A DNA stretch of 10,169 nucleotides from an uncultured archaeon. GTDB taxonomy: Archaea; Asgardarchaeota; Thorarchaeia; Thorarchaeales; Thorarchaeaceae. The notes under the pieces were generated by a model, which saw only the letters and a list, made by a program, of their open reading frames with translations, searched no databases and was not told the DNA's origin. The position numbers and the translations under genes were made by a program. This document shows, piece after piece, positions 1,130-9,789 of this stretch. The stretch spans positions 1-10,169 of the forward strand of contig CAZSWP010000071.1 in NCBI GenBank assembly GCA_964610875.1, given 5' to 3'. Each line of letters opens with the position of its first letter. Position 1 is the stretch's first letter.

Positions 1130-1924
1130 TCATATAATGCCTTTCTCTATCATTTTCAATGATATTTGAAGTGATAGAATGCAATGGTCTGTCGCAGGAT
1201 AATCTGGGTATTTGGAATAATGTTTCATTTCTATAATTTGTGAAAGGACATCATCACTGTAATCTATGGGGATGAGTTGGGAATGCTCTGGAAGTCTAAT
1301 AGAAATCGATTCTGAATCAATAGATATTGGGACTAGCGTCACAAGACTCGTGTCGTGATTACTTCCCCATACTCCGCCTATTAGTTTCATTTCTGAAGTA
1401 TCTATATTCTTTAAAGTGATGGAGGTTTCTTCTTGGATTTCCCTGATTGCGGTTTCAAATGGATGTTCCGGAATTACTGACCAAGCTTCGGGCATGTCGG
1501 GGTTGGAAATTACGAATGGTTCTATGAATCCCCCTCCTACAAAGTGAAGCATGCCTCCTTGATCGCTTCCTTTCCTTATCCCTAGAACTAATTTCTTATC
1601 TGATGTAAGGAGGATTGTTGTTACACTGAGAGGATTAGGGTAGTCTGACATTATCTGGTATTTTTGGTCTCTAAGAACGAAATGCCACTTGTAGCTTGAA
1701 CGGCTGACTTTGATAGCAAGCATATGATCAAATTGATCAAAACTCTCAAATCTCCAAAGAGGTAAGTCTACAGTGTCGTTAGGTCTATTCTCCCAGCCTT
1801 TCTGAACAATATTTGCTTGTTTATCAGAGGGATTAAAACTCGTTGGGATTTGGTATATTTTTGTAACATCTCTGTACCACACACCATCGAAGAGGATTTT
1901 ACTTTCAATACCCAATGAGAACAC
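1130..1924 (-). CDS. Nudix hydrolase, NUDT22-like architecture
   Basis: Contains NPLSVTTILLTSDKKLVLGIR, then HFVGGGFIEP, an insertion, and FETAIREIQEETSI (Nudix box REUxEE). Has an N-terminal extension of about 95 aa. The true start may be TTG at 1915, with AGGTG as the SD. Confidence 0.85.
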   Translation of the reverse strand: MFSLGIESKILFDGVWYRDVTKIYQIPTSFNPSDKQANIVQKGWENRPNDTVDLPLWRFESFDQFDHMLAIKVSRSSYKWHFVLRDQKYQIMSDYPNPLSVTTILLTSDKKLVLGIRKGSDQGGMLHFVGGGFIEPFVISNPDMPEAWSVIPEHPFETAIREIQEETSITLKNIDTSEMKLIGGVWGSNHDTSLVTLVPISIDSESISIRLPEHSQLIPIDYSDDVLSQIIEMKHYSKYPDYPATDHCILSLQISLKMIEKGII

Positions 1925-2091: not shown

Positions 2092-3702
2092 ATGTTTAGA
2101 CGTATATTCACACGAAATGGGATAATTCTGATTTCAGTCCCATTATCTGGTGGATTGATGTGGATTTTGCATTTCATTTTGGAATTCTCAACATTGAGAA
2201 AACTCACTCCAAGTGCAGAACTCTTTCAACCCGCGTTCATTCTCTTTCATCTCGCAGCAGTACCCTTTGGGTGTCTATTCTACATCTCAACTTCTTCAAG
2301 ATGGAACCCATACAAAGCATTCGTACCATCACTAACACTCCTGACTGCCACGTTGATTGGGATGGTCTGGCTTCCATATATTGACCTAGGATATACTGGG
2401 TATTATGCATTGAGTACAATCTTTATTTCATTTCTTATTCTCCTTACTTTCGCAGGTTTTCTAAATGGTACAATTCTATCAATCACAATGATTACTGCAT
2501 TTCCTTCATTTGATAATCCTGAATATAATGGAAGATTCTATTTTGCGGCAACTGCCTTTCTGTGTCCTATTGTTATTGCTGCGGCATGGTTGGATGAACT
2601 GAATAATCCTCTTTTCTACAGCATATACCTGCTGCTCATATTCTTGGCTATTGCTGTCTGCTTCACGCTAGGTCATGAGCAACTAAATGAACATCCTCCA
2701 AGATGCTCGAACATTCGAGCATTATTGAGACAGACGGAGGTTTGGCCGTCTATTCTTCTATTATTCTTTGTTGGCTTCTTTTTCACAAACACCTATTTTG
2801 CAGCCGTCATCCTTCTCGATTATACTAATCTTCTTGGATTTCTCAACATGTTCGTCATGATTCTTTTTTGTACGTGTCTTGTGGCTACTGTTCCAAGTGG
2901 CATTTTATTCGACAAGCTAGGACGAAGATGGAGTCTCCTAATCGGGTTCTACCTCCAAGCAATTGCATTCTTATTGCTCTCGTTCTTTCCCCCCGCACAA
3001 AATCCACTAATGATTGAAGTCATATTTCCCATACTCATAGCTTTCGGGTTCACAATCTCAACATTCGGATCATTACTGTTTTCCTTGGAACTTGCTCCAA
3101 GTGGGTTTCTACGAGTGCATCAAGGTATCTCTTGGGCTTTATTTGGTGTGGGAATGACAGTCGGGGCTGCTACTGATATTTTTCTATATTCACTAATTAC
3201 ATCATCACCTGCGTATCTACCACTCGTCTTAGTATTTGCGTTATTCACCGCAACAATAATTGTACTGCAGTTGAAAGAAACTCTTCCATCACGTGGCGAG
3301 TTGGAATGGAAACACAAAATAGAACACTTACTGGTCCTTTCAAAAGGTGGCCTCCCACTTTATTCAGAACGACTTAGCAAATCTCCTGCACCTGAAACAA
3401 CTGCTGATGAGATGCTTGTTGGAGGTGCATTAACAGGAATCACTGAACTTGTGAAAGAGATTTCTCAAAGAGCAGGAAAACTGAAAGTAATTCAACAAGA
3501 AGGATATTGTATTCTTCTCGAAGAAGGACGCGAAGTCATTGTCGCAGTTATGGCACTTGAGGAACTTGGTATCATTAGATCCAAGACTCAAGACTTCCTA
3601 GAAGAATTTCAACGTTTCTTTGGTGAGCTTGTTACCGAATGGGAAGGCAATCCAAAAGTATTCAGTCCAACAAAAGAGATTGTTAAGGAGTATTTCCATT
3701 AA
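2092..3702 (+). CDS. MFS transporter fused to a C-terminal longin/roadblock-like domain
   Basis: About 12 hydrophobic segments in aa 1-395. MFS motif A GILFDKLGRR at 2899-2928. LKETL after the last TM. Soluble tail of about 128 aa (3316-3699): IEHLLVLSKGGLPLYS...DEMLVGGALTGITELVKEI...LKVIQQEGYCILLEEGREVIVAVMA...KTQDFLEEFQRFF, consistent with a beta-beta-alpha-beta-beta-beta-alpha-alpha longin pattern. Confidence 0.85.
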   Translation: MFRRIFTRNGIILISVPLSGGLMWILHFILEFSTLRKLTPSAELFQPAFILFHLAAVPFGCLFYISTSSRWNPYKAFVPSLTLLTATLIGMVWLPYIDLGYTGYYALSTIFISFLILLTFAGFLNGTILSITMITAFPSFDNPEYNGRFYFAATAFLCPIVIAAAWLDELNNPLFYSIYLLLIFLAIAVCFTLGHEQLNEHPPRCSNIRALLRQTEVWPSILLLFFVGFFFTNTYFAAVILLDYTNLLGFLNMFVMILFCTCLVATVPSGILFDKLGRRWSLLIGFYLQAIAFLLLSFFPPAQNPLMIEVIFPILIAFGFTISTFGSLLFSLELAPSGFLRVHQGISWALFGVGMTVGAATDIFLYSLITSSPAYLPLVLVFALFTATIIVLQLKETLPSRGELEWKHKIEHLLVLSKGGLPLYSERLSKSPAPETTADEMLVGGALTGITELVKEISQRAGKLKVIQQEGYCILLEEGREVIVAVMALEELGIIRSKTQDFLEEFQRFFGELVTEWEGNPKVFSPTKEIVKEYFH

Positions 3703-3724: not shown

Positions 3725-4633
3725 CTACATCTCAAGTCCACCAGGATCCTTCCAGACATCTTTGTTTAGATATCCAACAAACAGTGGCTTACTAAGATTC
3801 GGTCGAGAAATCCACATCAAGAAGGGTCTGTTGATCACATAGGGTGTGACTTTTGGTGGCATGCCTTTTGCTAGCATTCCGATGGCTGCAGCACTTTTCA
3901 CTCGAAATCCTTTTTCATTCATTTTCAATTTCGTCTGTTGTAATGCCTGTGCAATGAAATAGTAAGGTACGGGTCCATCTGGTGTCAGTAACCGCATACC
4001 CAGTAGCCAATCTACTTCCTTTTCAATATCTAAATCCACCATGGGAAATATGACACCGTTGTGTTGAACATGGATTGGTTTCATCTCATTAGTGAGTCTT
4101 TCAACCAGTTTTATTATCTCAATTCCCTCTGGTACCTCTTCTAACATCATGAGATAGACGAGATCATCACCCTTGGTCTTTAACTCAACAATGAATGAAT
4201 CATGGTCCTCTACAGAATGGAACGCATAATCCGATTGTATCTTGACTCCTGGATATTTTTGACGGTCATCATCGAAGACATGATTTTGACTTCCTGAAGA
4301 TAACCATTCTCCAACTACATCTAGAATGCTCACAACTCCGAATCCATCACCACCAAAAGGATCCAGTTGGATACTGAATCCATTTTCTTTCAGCCACTTA
4401 TTTAGTACAAAAACATCACTGTGTGCGATACTCCTAATTTCTTCAATCCTATGGGCATCTCCCCTACACCAATCGAAGACTTCTTTCATGAACTTCTTCT
4501 GTACTTCGTTGATAGGCTCCCATTCAGTAGAATGTTCAAGATAGTCCATTGCTTTCAATAGTGCTGAAACAATGGGATATACAACTACTGTTGAAGTTTC
4601 ACTTGTAAGGTTCTCTGACTTGTTCATTGGCAT
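3725..4633 (-). CDS. Serpin-fold protein, shortened, with atypical hinge
   Basis: Serpin landmarks occur in the expected order: VVYPIVSALL (s6B/hB), LNKWLKENG (hF), VVSILDVVGEW (s3A), IVELKTKGDDLVYLMML (s2B/s3B), VIFPMVDLD (s2C/s6A), IAQALQQTKLKMNEKG (s5A/hinge), YVINRPFLMWI...PLFVGYL...DP (C-terminal signature). The start may be the second ATG at 4627, which follows GGGAG. Confidence 0.8.
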   Translation of the reverse strand: MPMNKSENLTSETSTVVVYPIVSALLKAMDYLEHSTEWEPINEVQKKFMKEVFDWCRGDAHRIEEIRSIAHSDVFVLNKWLKENGFSIQLDPFGGDGFGVVSILDVVGEWLSSGSQNHVFDDDRQKYPGVKIQSDYAFHSVEDHDSFIVELKTKGDDLVYLMMLEEVPEGIEIIKLVERLTNEMKPIHVQHNGVIFPMVDLDIEKEVDWLLGMRLLTPDGPVPYYFIAQALQQTKLKMNEKGFRVKSAAAIGMLAKGMPPKVTPYVINRPFLMWISRPNLSKPLFVGYLNKDVWKDPGGLEM

Positions 4634-4714: not shown

Positions 4715-6151
4715 CTAGAAATTATCTCTTCTTCTTTTTTCATAATATGAAGAAACGTGGTTTAATGCAGTGACAGCTTCGCTAATATTCCGAAATACTG
4801 GAATATCATATTTTACAAAAATATCCCATGCTTCTTTTCTCGCATCTGGATACGCAACGTCAGGAATAGCTGCGAGGAACGGTTTCTTCTTCTTCTCAAT
4901 TATCATCTTACCTGATTGTGCGATTGCTTCCCAGAAATGGTTGACCACATCTGCGGCATCCATGATGGAAGAGACTTGGAAAATATTATGAACATCTGCT
5001 TCAAAAATTATCGAGTCGAAATTCTCTTCATCACCAACGATTCTGATAACTTCAGAAATGGTCTGGTCCTGATAATAATCTGCGGCAAGGTCAATTGGAT
5101 TTCCGAGACCTGTACCAACATCCCGGATCAATGGATCTAGTTTCTTTATAGTATCTTCAGATGTCTTTGGGACTTTCAGACCTGCCTCTATACAGAGATC
5201 TGTATAGATAACGCTAGTTCCTCCACTGATTGCCACAAGTCCTACATTCTTTGACTTTGGTGCAGGACACACTGAAAAGACACTCATTGTGGAAACCATT
5301 TCCTCCAGTGTTCTTACGGTTGGAACATTGGATTGAATGAATGCTGAATCCCAGATTTGTTTTGACCCAGCTAATGCCCCTGTGTGTGAAGATGCTGCTC
5401 GTGATCCCTCTGCTGACCTTCCACCTTTGAGAATTACCACGGGTTTCTTCTTTGCAAGTTCTCTGAGATTTTGAAAAAGAGTCCTTCCGTCCTTGGTTCC
5501 TTCTAAATATGCTCCAACTACCTTAGTTTCGTCGTCATCAATGAAGTAATCCAGAATCTCGTGAGATGTGATATCTATCTGATTACCAAAGCTGAATAGC
5601 TTACTGAAACCAACACCAGACTCAACACCTGCTGTATACACTGCAATGGCTACCCCTCCAGATTGAGAGAGAAAACCTGCGTTACCTGCGAGTCTTTTCG
5701 CAGTAGGCATGAAAGCAAATCCGAGTTTGGGATACGTAAGCCCCATACAATTAGGCCCCAAAACCCTCATTGGAATACTATGCACAAGTTCTCTAAGACT
5801 GGCTTCATACTGCCTTCCTTTATCGGTTCCCAATTCTGAATAACCACTTGTAAAAATAGTGACTCCCTTCGCTCCTTTTGCGTAACACTGCTTAACAACA
5901 GGTTCTACAAATCTCTGAGGGACTGCAATGATAGCATAGTCGATATTTTCAGGTAGTTCGCCAACATTCTCGTATATCTTCTTACCGAGAACCTCTCCAC
6001 CACGATGAGAAACAAGCCAGATATTCAAATCGTGGTCCCACTGCAACATAGAATGAGCCCAATAGTATCCGAGCTTAACTGAAACACCCACTATCGCAAC
6101 GGATTTGATCTTTAGCATCTCCTTGATGCTTGGTCTTTGAACTTGAATCAT
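4715..6151 (-). CDS. acdA: Acyl/acetate-CoA ligase (ADP/NDP-forming), alpha subunit family
   Basis: CoA-binding Rossmann start (SVAIVGVS), IDYAIIAVP, FTSGYSELG, LGPNCMG, LSQSGG, SFGNQIDI, YLEG, LKGGRS, phospho-His motif SHTGALAG (H256), SGG and NPIDL. No ATP-grasp domain. Substrate specificity cannot be assigned. Confidence 0.92.
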   Translation of the reverse strand: MIQVQRPSIKEMLKIKSVAIVGVSVKLGYYWAHSMLQWDHDLNIWLVSHRGGEVLGKKIYENVGELPENIDYAIIAVPQRFVEPVVKQCYAKGAKGVTIFTSGYSELGTDKGRQYEASLRELVHSIPMRVLGPNCMGLTYPKLGFAFMPTAKRLAGNAGFLSQSGGVAIAVYTAGVESGVGFSKLFSFGNQIDITSHEILDYFIDDDETKVVGAYLEGTKDGRTLFQNLRELAKKKPVVILKGGRSAEGSRAASSHTGALAGSKQIWDSAFIQSNVPTVRTLEEMVSTMSVFSVCPAPKSKNVGLVAISGGTSVIYTDLCIEAGLKVPKTSEDTIKKLDPLIRDVGTGLGNPIDLAADYYQDQTISEVIRIVGDEENFDSIIFEADVHNIFQVSSIMDAADVVNHFWEAIAQSGKMIIEKKKKPFLAAIPDVAYPDARKEAWDIFVKYDIPVFRNISEAVTALNHVSSYYEKRRRDNF

Positions 6152-6260: not shown

Positions 6261-7403
6261 ATGTCGGGCAACTACGGTATTGCACAAGTATGGACACGGT
6301 ACCGTAGGTATTTGATTCTCTCACTTTTATTGACATTCATACTTGTTCCCGTTGTAGACTCGTTTGTCATTCAACGGGATAGAAATAGAAACATGGTGTT
6401 TGGAGAGTTATTCTGGTCTGAAGGCCTTGATGTTTATGATATGAATGACCAGTATCTAAATGAAACATTTGATGTTCCAGAAGATCATTTACTTACTGAT
6501 GTACTAAACGTAACCTACGAATACCCGCTAATCACCCTTCTATTTTATGCACTCATTGCGGGAATTGAACCTGGAATTTACGGTCCACATTATCTGGTCA
6601 ATTGGATAACACTATTGATTGCTCATCTCAACCTTATACTATTCCTATATCTTGGACAGGGGCAATGGGATAAAAAATGGTTCTGGCAATTCTTTGGTAC
6701 TTACTATATCTTTACAGTCGGATTATCTCTTTTTTTTGCTAAAACAGAACCACTTGCAGATCTGTTCTGGTTGATTGCTATAGTATTCTATAAAGGCCGA
6801 AGATATTGGTTCTCACAGGGTATGCTTGCAATCGCGACCCAAACTAAATTGTATCCTGCAATGATAGAGCCTGTACTTTTGATTGCGAACCCTCTCTCAT
6901 CTATTTCATTCATCATAGTAAATGCATTGTTGCTTCTTCCATTCATTCTTAATGGTAAGGGATATGATACTCTATTCAATCATGTTTTCAACAGAGAAGG
7001 GTACGCTAGCATGATCACTAATCCGTTCTACATTGGTTGGATAGGATCCAATATCTTGGCAATTATCCCCATAATTGTTCTATTGATTGCCTTTGCATAT
7101 GCCATCTTTGCAGGAAAGAGAACTAATGGAATTCTTCTTCCTCTAGGCAATCTGGAAGTGCGTTCAGCAAGAACAATTCTCATTTTCATCTTGCCATTTA
7201 TTCTTGTTCTCTTTTCTTGGGTACTTATGTGGTACTATGCATGGTTCATTATTCCAGTTCTTCTAATCGAGGAAAGTAAGGAAGCTTCTAGGTATAGATA
7301 CATACTTCTTGGCATTGGATTTGCTCATGTTTTTGGAATTCTTATTAACTTGGACTACTTCATTCTTGGACCAATTGCTGAATTTCTTGGGCATCTAAAG
7401 TGA
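6261..7403 (+). CDS. Polytopic GT-C fold glycosyltransferase (GT87/DUF2029, PIG-M-like)
   Basis: About 10 TM segments. Acidic first external loop ending in YEYPLITLLF, mid-protein AIATQTKLYP, and late MWYYAWFIIP. These match the EYP / KxxP / xY..W..P motifs of GT87-type mannosyltransferases. Confidence 0.7.
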   Translation: MSGNYGIAQVWTRYRRYLILSLLLTFILVPVVDSFVIQRDRNRNMVFGELFWSEGLDVYDMNDQYLNETFDVPEDHLLTDVLNVTYEYPLITLLFYALIAGIEPGIYGPHYLVNWITLLIAHLNLILFLYLGQGQWDKKWFWQFFGTYYIFTVGLSLFFAKTEPLADLFWLIAIVFYKGRRYWFSQGMLAIATQTKLYPAMIEPVLLIANPLSSISFIIVNALLLLPFILNGKGYDTLFNHVFNREGYASMITNPFYIGWIGSNILAIIPIIVLLIAFAYAIFAGKRTNGILLPLGNLEVRSARTILIFILPFILVLFSWVLMWYYAWFIIPVLLIEESKEASRYRYILLGIGFAHVFGILINLDYFILGPIAEFLGHLK

Positions 7404-7564: not shown

Positions 7565-9367
7565 ATGCGAATATATCTAGATGCAAATTTCTTCATATCG
7601 GGATTCAGCGATAGACCAAAAGACGTCTTTCTAATCAAAGAAGCTTGTGAACAAGTAGGTATGGAACTATGGACAACAAGGCAGGTTTTTCAAGAGCTTC
7701 GATGGTACCTCCGTCGAGAAGTTGAACAAATCATTTCTATTGAGGAAACTCTGAAGAAAGACATCAAAGAATTCATGAGCAGTATTCCGAGACCTGAGTC
7801 TAGTCTTCCTCAGGCAAATGATATGTCATTAATCCTAGCAGCTATGCGAAGTAAGAATTCAAAGATTGTCACCAGTGATCTGAAGCTCCTCAACACAATT
7901 CAGGATTTGAAAGTCAAGGCTGACGGTATTGTGGGCTCAGCATTTGTCCTTGAACTTGTTGAGAAACTCGAAGATGAAAAACTGAAAAAGCAGCTGATTA
8001 AGATTCGTGAGAGAATTTATGGTGAGGAAGTTAGGTATAGTATCTCACGACAGGAATCATATGACCCGGTCACTAGGATTAGAATTATTGAAGAACATGC
8101 AATGAAGGTTTTACGGACAGTTAAGCGCCCCGCTGAAGCATTGGAACCAAAACTTGCTAAAGGACAACCTTTGTTTGTTTTAGACTTCCTTGAGGATATC
8201 AAAGCAGGCATTCCCACTATGTTTGAAGATTTCAAGCTTGGAAAATATGATGTTCTTGCTAATGAGATTGAAGCAGTGCAGAACGAGATTGAACGTTTAC
8301 TCATTGTTTCAACATTGACTGAAGAACGTGACACTCACGACCAATTAGTTGGTCATGCTGCAGACCTGACGTTATTTCTATATTATTTGGAAACGATATG
8401 TCATCTCTATCGAGGCACACGCGATGGAGTTGAAGATGCTCTTGCTGTAAGCGATGAAGCATTTCGACTTCTTATGTTCACAGGCGTGCAAGATGATGCA
8501 CTGAAAGCTTCTGTGTTCTTTGCGAGAATCTTGATATCTCTAATACGTGAAGACTATGAGGATATTGATTACTTCTATAGTCTCTACGATTCGATGTTGA
8601 AGAGAACTGGTCTTGAAGACATGATGGAAACCTCAGAAGGACTCTATGTCACTATGCAGATTTTGAGGGAATTCATGGGTGGATTCTCCCTGACAAAGAG
8701 TCGCCTTGAGTATCCTGATGCAACAATTGCGATGCTTAATGACATTTCTAAATATTGTATCCAGTTTGATGACCATGACAATGCTTGGCAATTGTCAGTA
8801 AATGCGTACAAGATTGGTGTGGCATATGGTAAGGAGGACGCAGCACTCGCATCTTTCCAAATGTTATACAAGGTGTCATCCTCGTCACATGACCGGTTCA
8901 AACCTGCCCTCGAAAAGATAGCAGAAAATGCACTGAAGATGTTTGTAAAGAAAGGATGGAAAACCTCTGAAGTAACACCCATTCTCAATGAGGTTCAGGG
9001 TAACATCCCTCCTATGGAATTGAAAATCACAGAAGGAAGGCAGTCCTTTGAAAAATTGCCTGATGAACTAAAAGGTTGGATGGATGTGCTTTCGCTTGAA
9101 CAGATTGATGATACAATCACGATGATTGTCCGCAATGACTCAATTCAGGCAAGAGTAGGCATTGTTGTTTCGGGGCATCCTGAACTACACGAATTGAGGA
9201 CTGGTCATAAAGTTGCTCTAACACACGGTGAATTCACAATTCGGAAGGCATCGGATGAAGTTATTAAGAGATATGCAGTAATGTTAATCGTAGAGCCTTC
9301 AGAATCAGCTGAAATCTCCTACGAGGGCGAATATGGATTCAGCTACTTGAAGGTTGCTGGAGCATAA
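7565..9367 (+). CDS. PIN-domain nuclease with a long helical (TPR-like) region and a putative C-terminal OB-like domain
   Basis: PIN acidic tetrad is intact: IYLD6AN, VFQE44L, AND86MSLI, IVTSD105. Aa ~135-480 are amphipathic helices; aa ~500-600 are beta-rich. SD GGTGA at 7551-7555. Confidence 0.85.
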   Translation: MRIYLDANFFISGFSDRPKDVFLIKEACEQVGMELWTTRQVFQELRWYLRREVEQIISIEETLKKDIKEFMSSIPRPESSLPQANDMSLILAAMRSKNSKIVTSDLKLLNTIQDLKVKADGIVGSAFVLELVEKLEDEKLKKQLIKIRERIYGEEVRYSISRQESYDPVTRIRIIEEHAMKVLRTVKRPAEALEPKLAKGQPLFVLDFLEDIKAGIPTMFEDFKLGKYDVLANEIEAVQNEIERLLIVSTLTEERDTHDQLVGHAADLTLFLYYLETICHLYRGTRDGVEDALAVSDEAFRLLMFTGVQDDALKASVFFARILISLIREDYEDIDYFYSLYDSMLKRTGLEDMMETSEGLYVTMQILREFMGGFSLTKSRLEYPDATIAMLNDISKYCIQFDDHDNAWQLSVNAYKIGVAYGKEDAALASFQMLYKVSSSSHDRFKPALEKIAENALKMFVKKGWKTSEVTPILNEVQGNIPPMELKITEGRQSFEKLPDELKGWMDVLSLEQIDDTITMIVRNDSIQARVGIVVSGHPELHELRTGHKVALTHGEFTIRKASDEVIKRYAVMLIVEPSESAEISYEGEYGFSYLKVAGA

Positions 9368-9393: not shown

Positions 9394-9789
9394 ATGGACC
9401 CATTCATCATATTGGTAATTGTAGTTGGAATAATGATAGCGTCATATTTCAATTATCTATTGAACCGCGCCCCCGGTTCTGATCCTGATGACTTTCAAGT
9501 TGGTCCTTCTGAACTCAATATCACATGTGACTGTTATCTCAATACTCTCATAATTGGTGGTATAGTTGTCATTGCTATAGCCGCTTCGTCATCTTATTTT
9601 GATGGCAGATTGGAACTCTATACAGTTGGAATTCTGGCTTTTACCATCATCACCGTAGCAGGGATTCTTGGAAGACGCCAAAGATATGCTGAATGGCGTG
9701 AGTTACACAAGGTATTCAAGAGAGTCGTCAAGAAGTCTAAGATCAAGACTGCAGATGCAATCTTCGACGAAGACCCAGAGGATTATTAA
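9394..9789 (+). CDS. Small hypothetical membrane protein (3 TM, CxC motif, basic then acidic tail)
   Basis: Three hydrophobic segments, ITCDCY before TM2, GAGG SD, 26 nt downstream of the PIN gene on the same strand. Confidence 0.8.
   Translation: MDPFIILVIVVGIMIASYFNYLLNRAPGSDPDDFQVGPSELNITCDCYLNTLIIGGIVVIAIAASSSYFDGRLELYTVGILAFTIITVAGILGRRQRYAEWRELHKVFKRVVKKSKIKTADAIFDEDPEDY

Follow-up and report, generated by a model that had tools for sequence, protein, structure and literature searches.

A carrier-longin fusion gene in an Asgard archaeon

We analyzed contig CAZSWP010000071.1 of an uncultured archaeon of the Thorarchaeaceae (assembly GCA_964610875.1; 3.75 Mb, 95% complete). The whole stretch of 10,169 nt, hereafter the window, is a complete 10-kb contig. 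A gene on its forward strand encodes a protein of 536 aa that joins a membrane body of the major facilitator superfamily (MFS) to a C-terminal longin domain. The gene starts with ATG and contains zero internal stops, and the start codon is well defined because the open frame reaches just 5 codons upstream of the ATG. The initial annotation of this DNA had proposed that an MFS body of 12 transmembrane helices (TMs) continues in frame into a soluble tail and forms a candidate transceptor; the arrangement was borne out by the single open reading frame (ORF), by AlphaFold2 (AF2) models and by Foldseek. The features of the gene, all on the plus strand, are as follows.

2092..3702, stop codon included: whole gene for the MFS-longin fusion protein (P0001); a single uninterrupted ORF with full-length relatives in Asgard metagenome-assembled genomes (MAGs)
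2113..2670: MFS N-half, TM1-TM6, aa 8-193; AF2 helices 8-38, 47-66, 73-96, 109-139, 146-169 and 173-193
2161..2187: TM1 patch W24-x2-H27-F28-x2-E31-F32, a candidate cavity or proton-coupling site by its conservation
2287..2316: TM2-TM3 cytoplasmic loop, aa 66-75, with degenerate motif A STSSRWNPYK; S69 and the following K/R are the sole conserved positions
2734..3267: MFS C-half, TM7-TM12, aa 215-392, by Pfam MFS_1, a profile of relatives (A1) and AF2 helices
2893..2931: C-half motif A, PSGILFDKLGRRW, aa 268-280, in the loop between TM8 and TM9; P268, G270, D274, G277 and R278 invariant or nearly so
3268..3318: juxtamembrane linker, Q393-LKETLPSRGELEWKHK-409, more conserved than any other part of the protein
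3319..3699: longin-fold domain, aa 410-536, by AF2, VIA-align and a profile of tail relatives (A2); by AF2/DSSP, strands b1 410-417, b2 422-427, b3 466-469, b4 472-478 and b5 482-488, and helices a1 440-458, a2 493-515, a3 521-524 and a4 527-535
3391..3513: predicted homodimer interface, aa 434-474 (model residues 35-75), helix a1 and edge strand b3, from two-copy complex prediction

Full-length relatives that are 39-66% identical at 99-100% coverage were found in independent NCBI, JGI, ENA and Logan assemblies, with 66% identity in MAGs that carry the labels Lokiarchaeota and Thorarchaeota and 41% in those labelled Odinarchaeota. A Hodarchaeales MAG carries a partial relative (89% of the query covered, 40% identity). 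A scan of a genome collection yielded at least three MFS-longin loci, all of them Asgard. Of 201 genomes sampled from the phylum, 79 match the segment spanning TM11/12, linker and longin at E≤1e-10, a count that describes the tail family and not the MFS form alone because other tail-bearing classes match too; the best two of these matches (78% and 68% identity) lie in open frames that are 554 and 540 aa long. An assembly artefact, which the initial annotation had considered, or a chance ORF was rejected, since the full-length fusion recurs in independent assemblies and Asgard lineages. By these comparisons, the fusion is real and Asgard lineages have conserved it, and we regard the architecture, a 12-TM MFS body with a longin tail, as close to certain.

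A divergent MFS body

The full-length AF2 model was built on a 12-row alignment (A1, 12 relatives). It contains 12 long helices in a 6+6 arrangement (aa 8-392) with a central loop at aa 194-214, and its predicted local distance difference test score (pLDDT) is about 90 over aa 1-392, with most values at 80-96. Foldseek against the PDB gave solely MFS proteins among the 50 matches listed, including SV2A, PiPT, GLUT7, VMAT2, XylE and PfHT1, with E values down to 4.6e-9 over 405-480 aligned columns. As modeled, the MFS fold is unambiguous by structure. Matches to Pfam MFS_1 or to solved MFS chains at the level of sequence concern the C-half only: Pfam MFS_1 aligns with aa 175-358 at E 8.3e-8 and 32.0 bits, just under the curated cut-off of 33.4, and the A1 profile reaches PfHT1, FucP and STP10 at E 1e-4 to 1e-3 with the C-half alone. 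No NCBIfam model matches the MFS body, and precomputed PF07690 matches are carried by 10 of the 12 relatives. The body is thus a very divergent MFS, because the MFS_1 match is below the cut-off, NCBIfam is blank and the profile matches are confined to the C-half.

Motif A, whose consensus is G-x-L-a-D-r-x-G-r-k/r, had been described as clear in the C-half and degenerate in the N-half loop (SSRWNPYK), and conservation agrees. The TM8-9 loop reads P268-S-G-I-L-F-D274-K-L-G277-R278-R-W, of which G270, D274, G277 and R278 are invariant in the 12 relatives; its TM2-TM3 counterpart keeps nothing but S69 and a basic residue. Among 42 MFS-longin proteins, with identity down to ~20%, the TM1 residues W..HF..EF each retain a column frequency of at least 50%, and W24, F28 and F32 are invariant among the 8 closest relatives. 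The same 42 proteins conserve G122 and F123 of TM4, F225 to Y236 of TM7 including N233 and the likewise polar Y235, residues of TM10, and the cytoplasmic loops after TM4 and TM10. In MFS proteins generally, these positions correspond to cavity-lining helices and gating loops. The conserved polar residues of TM1 (H27, E31) and TM7 (N233, Y235) suggest a candidate ligand site. Nothing shows a loss of transport, because the cavity helices keep conserved polar residues, and we infer that a ligand site and conformational cycling are retained.

These features bear on the transceptor, a transporter-like receptor of the kind of SLC38A9, Mep2 and Gap1 that signals in a ligand-dependent way. By analogy with SLC38A9-Ragulator-Rag, the MFS body would mainly sense a solute and the linker would relay its state to a longin serving as guanine nucleotide exchange factor (GEF), GTPase-activating protein (GAP) or scaffold for a small GTPase. 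The degenerate N-half motif A would suit a sensor, but the conservation of the TM1, 4, 7 and 10 cavity helices and of the C-half gating motifs fits active transport equally.

The linker is conserved above the carrier. In the 42 MFS-longin proteins, the mean top-residue frequency is 0.68 for the linker (Q393 to K409), 0.49 for the longin and 0.35 for the TM body. E396, L398, E403 and W406 are invariant in A1, and W406 is nearly invariant in 70 tails drawn from unrelated scaffolds. As linker and tail are conserved above the TM body, selection on the tail appears at least as strong as that on the carrier. A connection between TM12 and b1 that is both very short and very conserved is also what a relay of transporter state would call for.

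The tail is predicted to be a longin

The tail was modeled separately with A2, a 70-row alignment of tail relatives, which gave pLDDT 92.1 and a predicted template modeling score of 0.86. Its topology, b-b-a-b-b-b-a followed by two short helices, matches the longin order rather than the roadblock order a-b-b-a-b-b-b-a, which has a helix before b1 and a single helix at the C-terminus; ahead of b1 there are just two one-turn helices and no long N-terminal helix. The initial annotation had called the tail longin/roadblock-like on the basis of strings that the translation does contain: aa 419-425 read GGLPLYS and aa 439-457 read DEMLVGGALTGITELVKEI. AF2, Foldseek and VIA-align all place the tail in this superfamily, on the longin rather than the roadblock side, so the proposal withstands the refuting condition set in the initial annotation, a tail of neither longin, roadblock nor profilin-like fold.

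VIA-align compared the tail model with 48,161 chains. The top match is the first longin of Fuzzy (7q3d_C; Z 12.6, root-mean-square deviation 2.7 Å over 119 residues), followed by TRAPPC1 (7b6d_C; Z 12.1), Bet5 (3cue_C; Z 12.0), the longins of VAMP7 (4afi_B) and Sec22 (3egd_C) at Z 11.9, and synbindin (Z 11.6). Together, the top longin alignments span model residues 1 to 137, which is the whole domain. Mon1/Ccz1 chains score Z 10.3-10.9, adaptor sigma/mu chains, like the VAMP7 and Sec22 longins, match the structure closely, and the solved Asgard roadblock/longin chains (PDB 8yqg, 9jue, 7f8m) score Z 9.2-11.5. Roadblock chains (MglB, Asgard roadblocks, LAMTOR) align at Z 8.5-11.5, limited to model residues 6-117. 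Foldseek with the tail returned 88 matches at E≤1e-3; the 35 matches listed all belong to the longin/roadblock superfamily, and the LAMTOR chains of 6wj2 are present in the Foldseek matches.

The A2 profile reached Trs23/TRAPPC4 (E 1.5e-4) and TRAPPC1 (E 0.09) in the PDB. Identification by single-sequence phmmer against the PDB was rejected, as it gave noise only (RuvBL2 E 0.08, Mon1 E 1.7). Among the 70 relatives, weak Pfam matches recur to Sybindin (19; best 5.3e-5), Fuz_longin_1 (18; best 4e-4), Intu_longin_1 (14) and Robl_LC7 (6), and to no other family. Because Pfam matches are weak or absent while the profile reaches Trs23, the tail is a distant relative outside existing Pfam families. 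The models indicate that it is more longin-type than roadblock-type, and sequence and structure together suggest that it leans to GEF-type longins. In eukaryotes, the longin fold is used for small-GTPase control. An affinity to GEF-type longins would favor the transceptor.

GAP-type longins (FLCN, NPRL2, SMCR8) have a GP motif that ends the b1-b2 loop and a catalytic arginine finger (PMC12290439). The loop of the tail, K-G-G-L-P (aa 418-422), reads G-x-P and not GP, and its proline is variable across the wider family; C9orf72-SMCR8 scores Z 8.0 only in VIA-align, and no FLCN- or NPRL2-type Pfam matches occur among the 70 relatives. By the loop motif and the Pfam checks, we saw no sign of the GAP-type signature in the tail, which speaks against the transceptor.

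Predicted pairing of the tails

Two-copy predictions of the tail with A2 gave ipSAE values of 0.70, 0.71 and 0.70, compared with 0.00 for the best control; among proteins of solved structure, 20 of 30 homodimers attain the mark applied to ipSAE, as does 1 of 23 single chains. The runs have at least 98% of their contacts in common, and the partner chain has pLDDT 86. In the predicted dimer, strand b3 pairs with b3, and the closest contacts, by model residue, are 68:68, 68:69 and 51:51. The same central-helix region mediates pairing in published roadblock and longin dimers (PMC10933270). The tail is thus predicted to homodimerize via the canonical a1/b3 longin interface.

The MFS-longin gene is single-copy in this genome. 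In two genomes of another Asgard family, MFS-longin paralogues with 48-53% identity are kept as a head-to-tail tandem pair (L034, G049:C5:73400-78000; L035, G195:C9:14300-19000), and their orthologues are 67-76% identical between the genomes. Conservation of the pair suggests obligate heterodimers in those lineages. The Odin locus (L030) contains two 531-aa MFS genes with one gene between them.

Both the clear margin of the predicted homodimer over the controls and the tandem pairs, which fit obligate heterodimers, would be explained if the tail were a generic oligomerization module that simply brings two MFS carriers together and has neither a GTPase nor a signaling partner. Yet linker and tail are conserved above the transporter body, and the conservation covers the whole longin including a2-a4 outside the predicted interface, which suggests further functional surfaces. 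Moreover, most longin/roadblock dimers characterized so far act as platforms, be it for GTPases or for other partners (PMC10933270). We give dimerization as the sole role perhaps one chance in four.

A family of juxtamembrane longin tails

An exhaustive phmmer search of 1.84 billion cluster representatives with the tail, from which A2 was drawn, gave 531 matches at E≤1e-3 and 137 at E≤1e-10. The initial annotation had called for a survey of MFS and longin architectures. In the 141 best representatives containing the N-terminus of the domain, the tail is carried by many scaffolds other than MFS. The longin lies at the extreme C-terminus in 128 of the 141 and follows at least one predicted TM in 120; the last TM ends no more than 30 residues before b1 in 104, with a typical spacing of ~10-30 residues. 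The number of upstream TMs, approximate because it comes from a crude hydropathy scan, is 0 in 21 proteins (a good many of which are short and may be fragments), 1-3 in 34, 4-5 in 15, 6-8 in 36 and 9-12 in 35. Altogether, the tail is found on ~100 or more unrelated membrane-protein scaffolds.

Single-pass members include giants of 600 to 2,600 aa with NosD/beta-helix, Ig-like or EMC7/ribophorin-like ectodomains (P0033, P0034, P0068, P0094, P0098). Three of these giants run on past the longin into a C-terminal winged helix-turn-helix (wHTH) domain (Pfam wHTH-PRTase_assc) and may be membrane-tethered regulators. The 6-8-TM class, one of the two largest scaffold classes, consists of proteins of ~355 aa (P0059, P0070, P0076 and others); its loci (L009, G000:C26:5974-7035; L014, G000:C24:52722-53822; L036) sometimes hold a tandem pair with 78% identity, and Pfam assigned no family to ten members searched. 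The idea that this class is a half-MFS homologous to the C-half was not supported: BLASTP of P0001 aligns the longin domain only, apart from one weak extra TM stretch (E 0.004) with the two 6-8-TM copies in this genome.

The named members are all Promethearchaeota (= Asgard), including Helarchaeota, or simply 'archaeon'. They are annotated as 'hypothetical protein', 'membrane protein of unknown function' or 'MFS', and one JGI entry as a Roadblock/LC7/MglB-family regulator. On sequence grounds, this is a large and previously unannotated family of 531 cluster representatives. Because it is found on many unrelated scaffolds, the tail looks like a general juxtamembrane dimerization and docking module that is not specific to nutrient sensing. 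Its occurrence on non-transporter scaffolds speaks against the transceptor, since solute sensing is then no specific property of the tail, and the diversity of the scaffolds suits a module that only dimerizes.

One conserved tail and linker common to many unrelated membrane proteins, adhesin-like single-pass giants included, might alternatively be a sorting tag by which one coat-like, cytoskeletal or ESCRT-linked system places proteins in particular membrane regions such as protrusions or vesicles. SNARE longins and adaptor sigma/mu chains, being among the close structural matches of the tail, would fit this. In eukaryotes, SNARE longins and adaptor subunits act in cargo sorting. But a folded, dimerizing domain of 130 aa is large for a mere tag, and internal compartments were not observed in two Asgard isolates (PMC10933270); a later report, as cited in PMC12290439, describes infrequent internal membrane structures in cultivated heimdallarchaeial cells. 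Sorting is the least probable of the explanations considered here, and we think it quite improbable.

Longins and GTPases of the same genome

The A2 profile detects ~28 further longin domains in this genome, which also has 29 Ras-family and 14 Robl_LC7 matches; weak Fuz_longin_1 and Intu_longin_1 matches occur in the paralogues of the tail as well. Two of the longins belong to 6-8-TM proteins. Four tetratricopeptide repeat (TPR) proteins of ~610-670 aa end in a longin (L010, G000:C7:80018-82009; L013, C21:11238-13253; L023, C9:9456-11453; L025, C4:31540-33378). A protein of 677 aa (L022, G000:C26:43530-45563) has an Arf/Roc-like GTPase domain at aa 140-274 and, at aa 402-523, a longin that matches the A2 profile at E 4.8e-10, and one of 298 aa (L024, G000:C9:7648-8547) combines an N-terminal longin with a C-terminal V4R domain (E 3.8e-12). 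Tran et al. 2024 (PMC10933270) had described the combination of a longin with a TRAPPC3-like domain in a Heimdall MAG.

Several proteins join an N-terminal longin to a TrmB-/MarR-like winged helix (L016, L017, L019, L020, L021; G000:C5:79978-80592, C48:15071-16845, C22:21378-23689). Two of these longin-wHTH sets are tandem arrangements, and a roadblock gene (C48:17766-18029) is located ~1 kb away from one set. Are they longin-regulated transcription factors?

The GTPase-longin fusion may be read as a 'Rosetta-stone' pointer to joint work of the tail with Arf- or Rag-like GTPases, which is a weak hint. A genome rich in GTPases, roadblocks and longins would also provide a transceptor with partners. 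Weighing this against the conserved transport features and the occurrence of the tail on other scaffolds, we find the transceptor unlikely, below dimerization alone and above sorting.

Neighborhood of the gene

The MFS-longin gene is its own transcription unit, divergent from a NUDIX-domain gene and convergent on a serpin-like gene. The other genes of the window, according to a Pfam search of its ORFs, are as follows.

1130-1924, minus strand: NUDIX-domain gene
3725-4633, minus strand: serpin-like gene, 302 aa; Pfam Serpin, E 2e-6, aa 226-289 against profile positions 305-367
4715-6151, minus strand: 478-aa protein with CoA-binding and Succ_CoA_lig domains, resembling the alpha part of ADP-forming acyl-CoA synthetases
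6261-7403, plus strand: 380-aa ORF with no Pfam match
7565-9367, plus strand: 600-aa protein with an N-terminal PIN domain (weak PIN_12 match); the large remainder is matchless
9394-9789, plus strand: 131-aa ORF with no Pfam match

The Serpin match of the ORF at 3725-4633 is confined to the last ~65 residues, which makes it an unusually short serpin-like protein. The flanking genes differ among the window, the Thor contig and the Odin contig. As the neighbors are not conserved, gene context does not discriminate among the readings.

Comparison with known systems

TRAPPC1/Bet5 and TRAPPC4/Trs23 share the fold over the whole domain and are the sole solved family reached by the sequence profile, and Sybindin, the family of TRAPP longins, is the most frequent weak Pfam match in the tail family (19/70). 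The predicted pairing of the tails uses a1 and b3, as longin/roadblock dimers do (PMC10933270). TRAPP subunits, however, are soluble and part of a multi-subunit Rab GEF, whereas the tail is covalently attached to a 12-TM carrier; it has no linked TRAPPC3/Bet3 partner, although a longin-V4R protein is encoded elsewhere in the genome, and the sequence identity is just 8-15%. A similar relation holds for the tri-longin Rab GEFs (Fuzzy/Inturned CPLANE, Mon1-Ccz1, HPS1-HPS4). The first longin of Fuzzy is the top structural match of the tail, and the weak Fuz_longin_1 and Intu_longin_1 matches in the tail family and in the genome paralogues point the same way, but these GEFs have three serial longins and are soluble with peripheral recruitment, in contrast to the one longin of an integral membrane protein.

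SLC38A9-Ragulator-Rag, with the amino-acid transceptor of animal lysosomes, offers a functional analogy, in that a polytopic protein of transporter fold meets a roadblock/longin platform at a membrane. Unlike the MFS-longin protein, SLC38A9 has an APC/LeuT fold, binds Rag-Ragulator non-covalently via an unstructured N-terminal tail and relies on separate roadblock proteins. The longin SNAREs (VAMP7, Sec22, Ykt6) are membrane-anchored proteins with a longin, and VAMP7 and Sec22 match the tail closely as noted above. Their order is the reverse: the longin stands at the N-terminus, ahead of a SNARE motif and a single C-terminal TM, whereas the longin of the MFS protein comes after the last TM. 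No Pfam SNARE family matches the MFS-longin protein.

The longin and roadblock proteins already described from Asgard archaea are members of the same superfamily, which is expanded in this phylum (Liu et al. 2020, doi 10.1101/2020.10.19.343400; PMC10933270). They are soluble or fused to GTPases, TRAPPC3, DENN or two-component domains (doi 10.1101/2020.10.19.343400; PMC10933270), and both the longin-GTPase and the longin-TRAPPC3/V4R type of reported fusion are present in this genome. No published MFS-longin family or family of TM proteins with C-terminal longins was found in the literature searched, the asCOG supplementary tables of Liu et al. excepted. C-terminal longin tails as a family on Asgard membrane proteins, MFS carriers included, are newly described here as far as the published descriptions we found go.

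A dimeric carrier with a longin docking platform

The observations fit the following model best. The gene product would be a divergent MFS secondary carrier that is Asgard-specific, its named relatives being all Asgard. About 17 residues past TM12, its cytoplasmic C-terminus is predicted to fold as a longin of the type found in TRAPPC1/C4 and as the first longin of Fuzzy and Mon1. Two tails would pair through a1 and b3, such that the carrier acts as a dimer: a homodimer in this genome, and perhaps a heterodimer where a lineage has two tandem paralogues. The rigid, conserved 17-residue linker would hold the two-fold longin platform close under the membrane, where it may present a docking or regulatory surface to a putative cytoplasmic partner. 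The likeliest partner would be one of the ~29 Ras-superfamily small GTPases or a roadblock/longin protein of the genome, for which the carrier might double as a membrane anchor for partner machinery. Control could run in either direction, from the partner to transport or from the state of the transporter to the partner. To the functional part of this explanation, a dimeric MFS carrier whose longin platform docks a cytoplasmic partner, we would give roughly an even chance.

Several points weigh against it. In the full-length AF2 model, on its 12-row alignment, the tail (aa 409-536) has pLDDT <50 and is unplaced with respect to the transporter, and Pfam gives zero matches on the tail at E≤0.1. 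The Z-scores of SNARE, adaptor-sigma, SRX and roadblock chains are within 1-3 units of the top, so that the subfamily and the GEF-like flavor of the longin are not settled. The dimer prediction may echo the model's memory of solved roadblock/longin dimers. Across the window, the Thor locus and the Odin locus, there is no conserved GTPase, roadblock or longin neighbor, and the lack of a GTPase neighbor at the loci compared is what a tail that only dimerizes would predict. The wHTH and TPR fusions of the same genome point instead to a general pairing module: wHTH domains are typically dimeric, and plain dimerization explains the wHTH, TPR and V4R fusions without any GTPase.

A broader form of the docking model would make the longin-tailed membrane proteins of Asgard archaea a class of receptors, or of GEF-like platforms, for small GTPases. 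The class would take in MFS carriers, the 6-8-TM proteins and those single-pass proteins whose ectodomains are large, with the MFS form as a forerunner of transporter-Ragulator/TRAPP coupling. We regard this as doubtful, slightly less probable than dimerization alone and slightly more so than the transceptor. If true, the MFS-longin protein would be a one-polypeptide link between solute status at the membrane and GTPase switching.

Asgard archaea have dozens of Ras-superfamily GTPases and many longins and roadblocks, whose targets and membrane recruitment are at issue. CAAX motifs and prenyltransferases were listed as not found in Lokiarchaeum, and the targets of Loki GTPases were posed as a question (PMC4917890). 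On that basis, the tail-bearing proteins could be the route of the GTPases to membranes. Conserved integral membrane proteins with a rigidly tethered longin, predicted to be dimeric, provide a clonable bait for finding partners, and the MFS form makes it possible to ask directly whether transporters were coupled to GTPases before eukaryotes arose. Even if the tail only dimerizes, it still explains the C-terminal part of hundreds of 'hypothetical' or 'MFS' proteins that lack a Pfam model. Its presence on many Asgard membrane proteins may show how membrane proteins are linked to GTPase-type machinery in these archaea.

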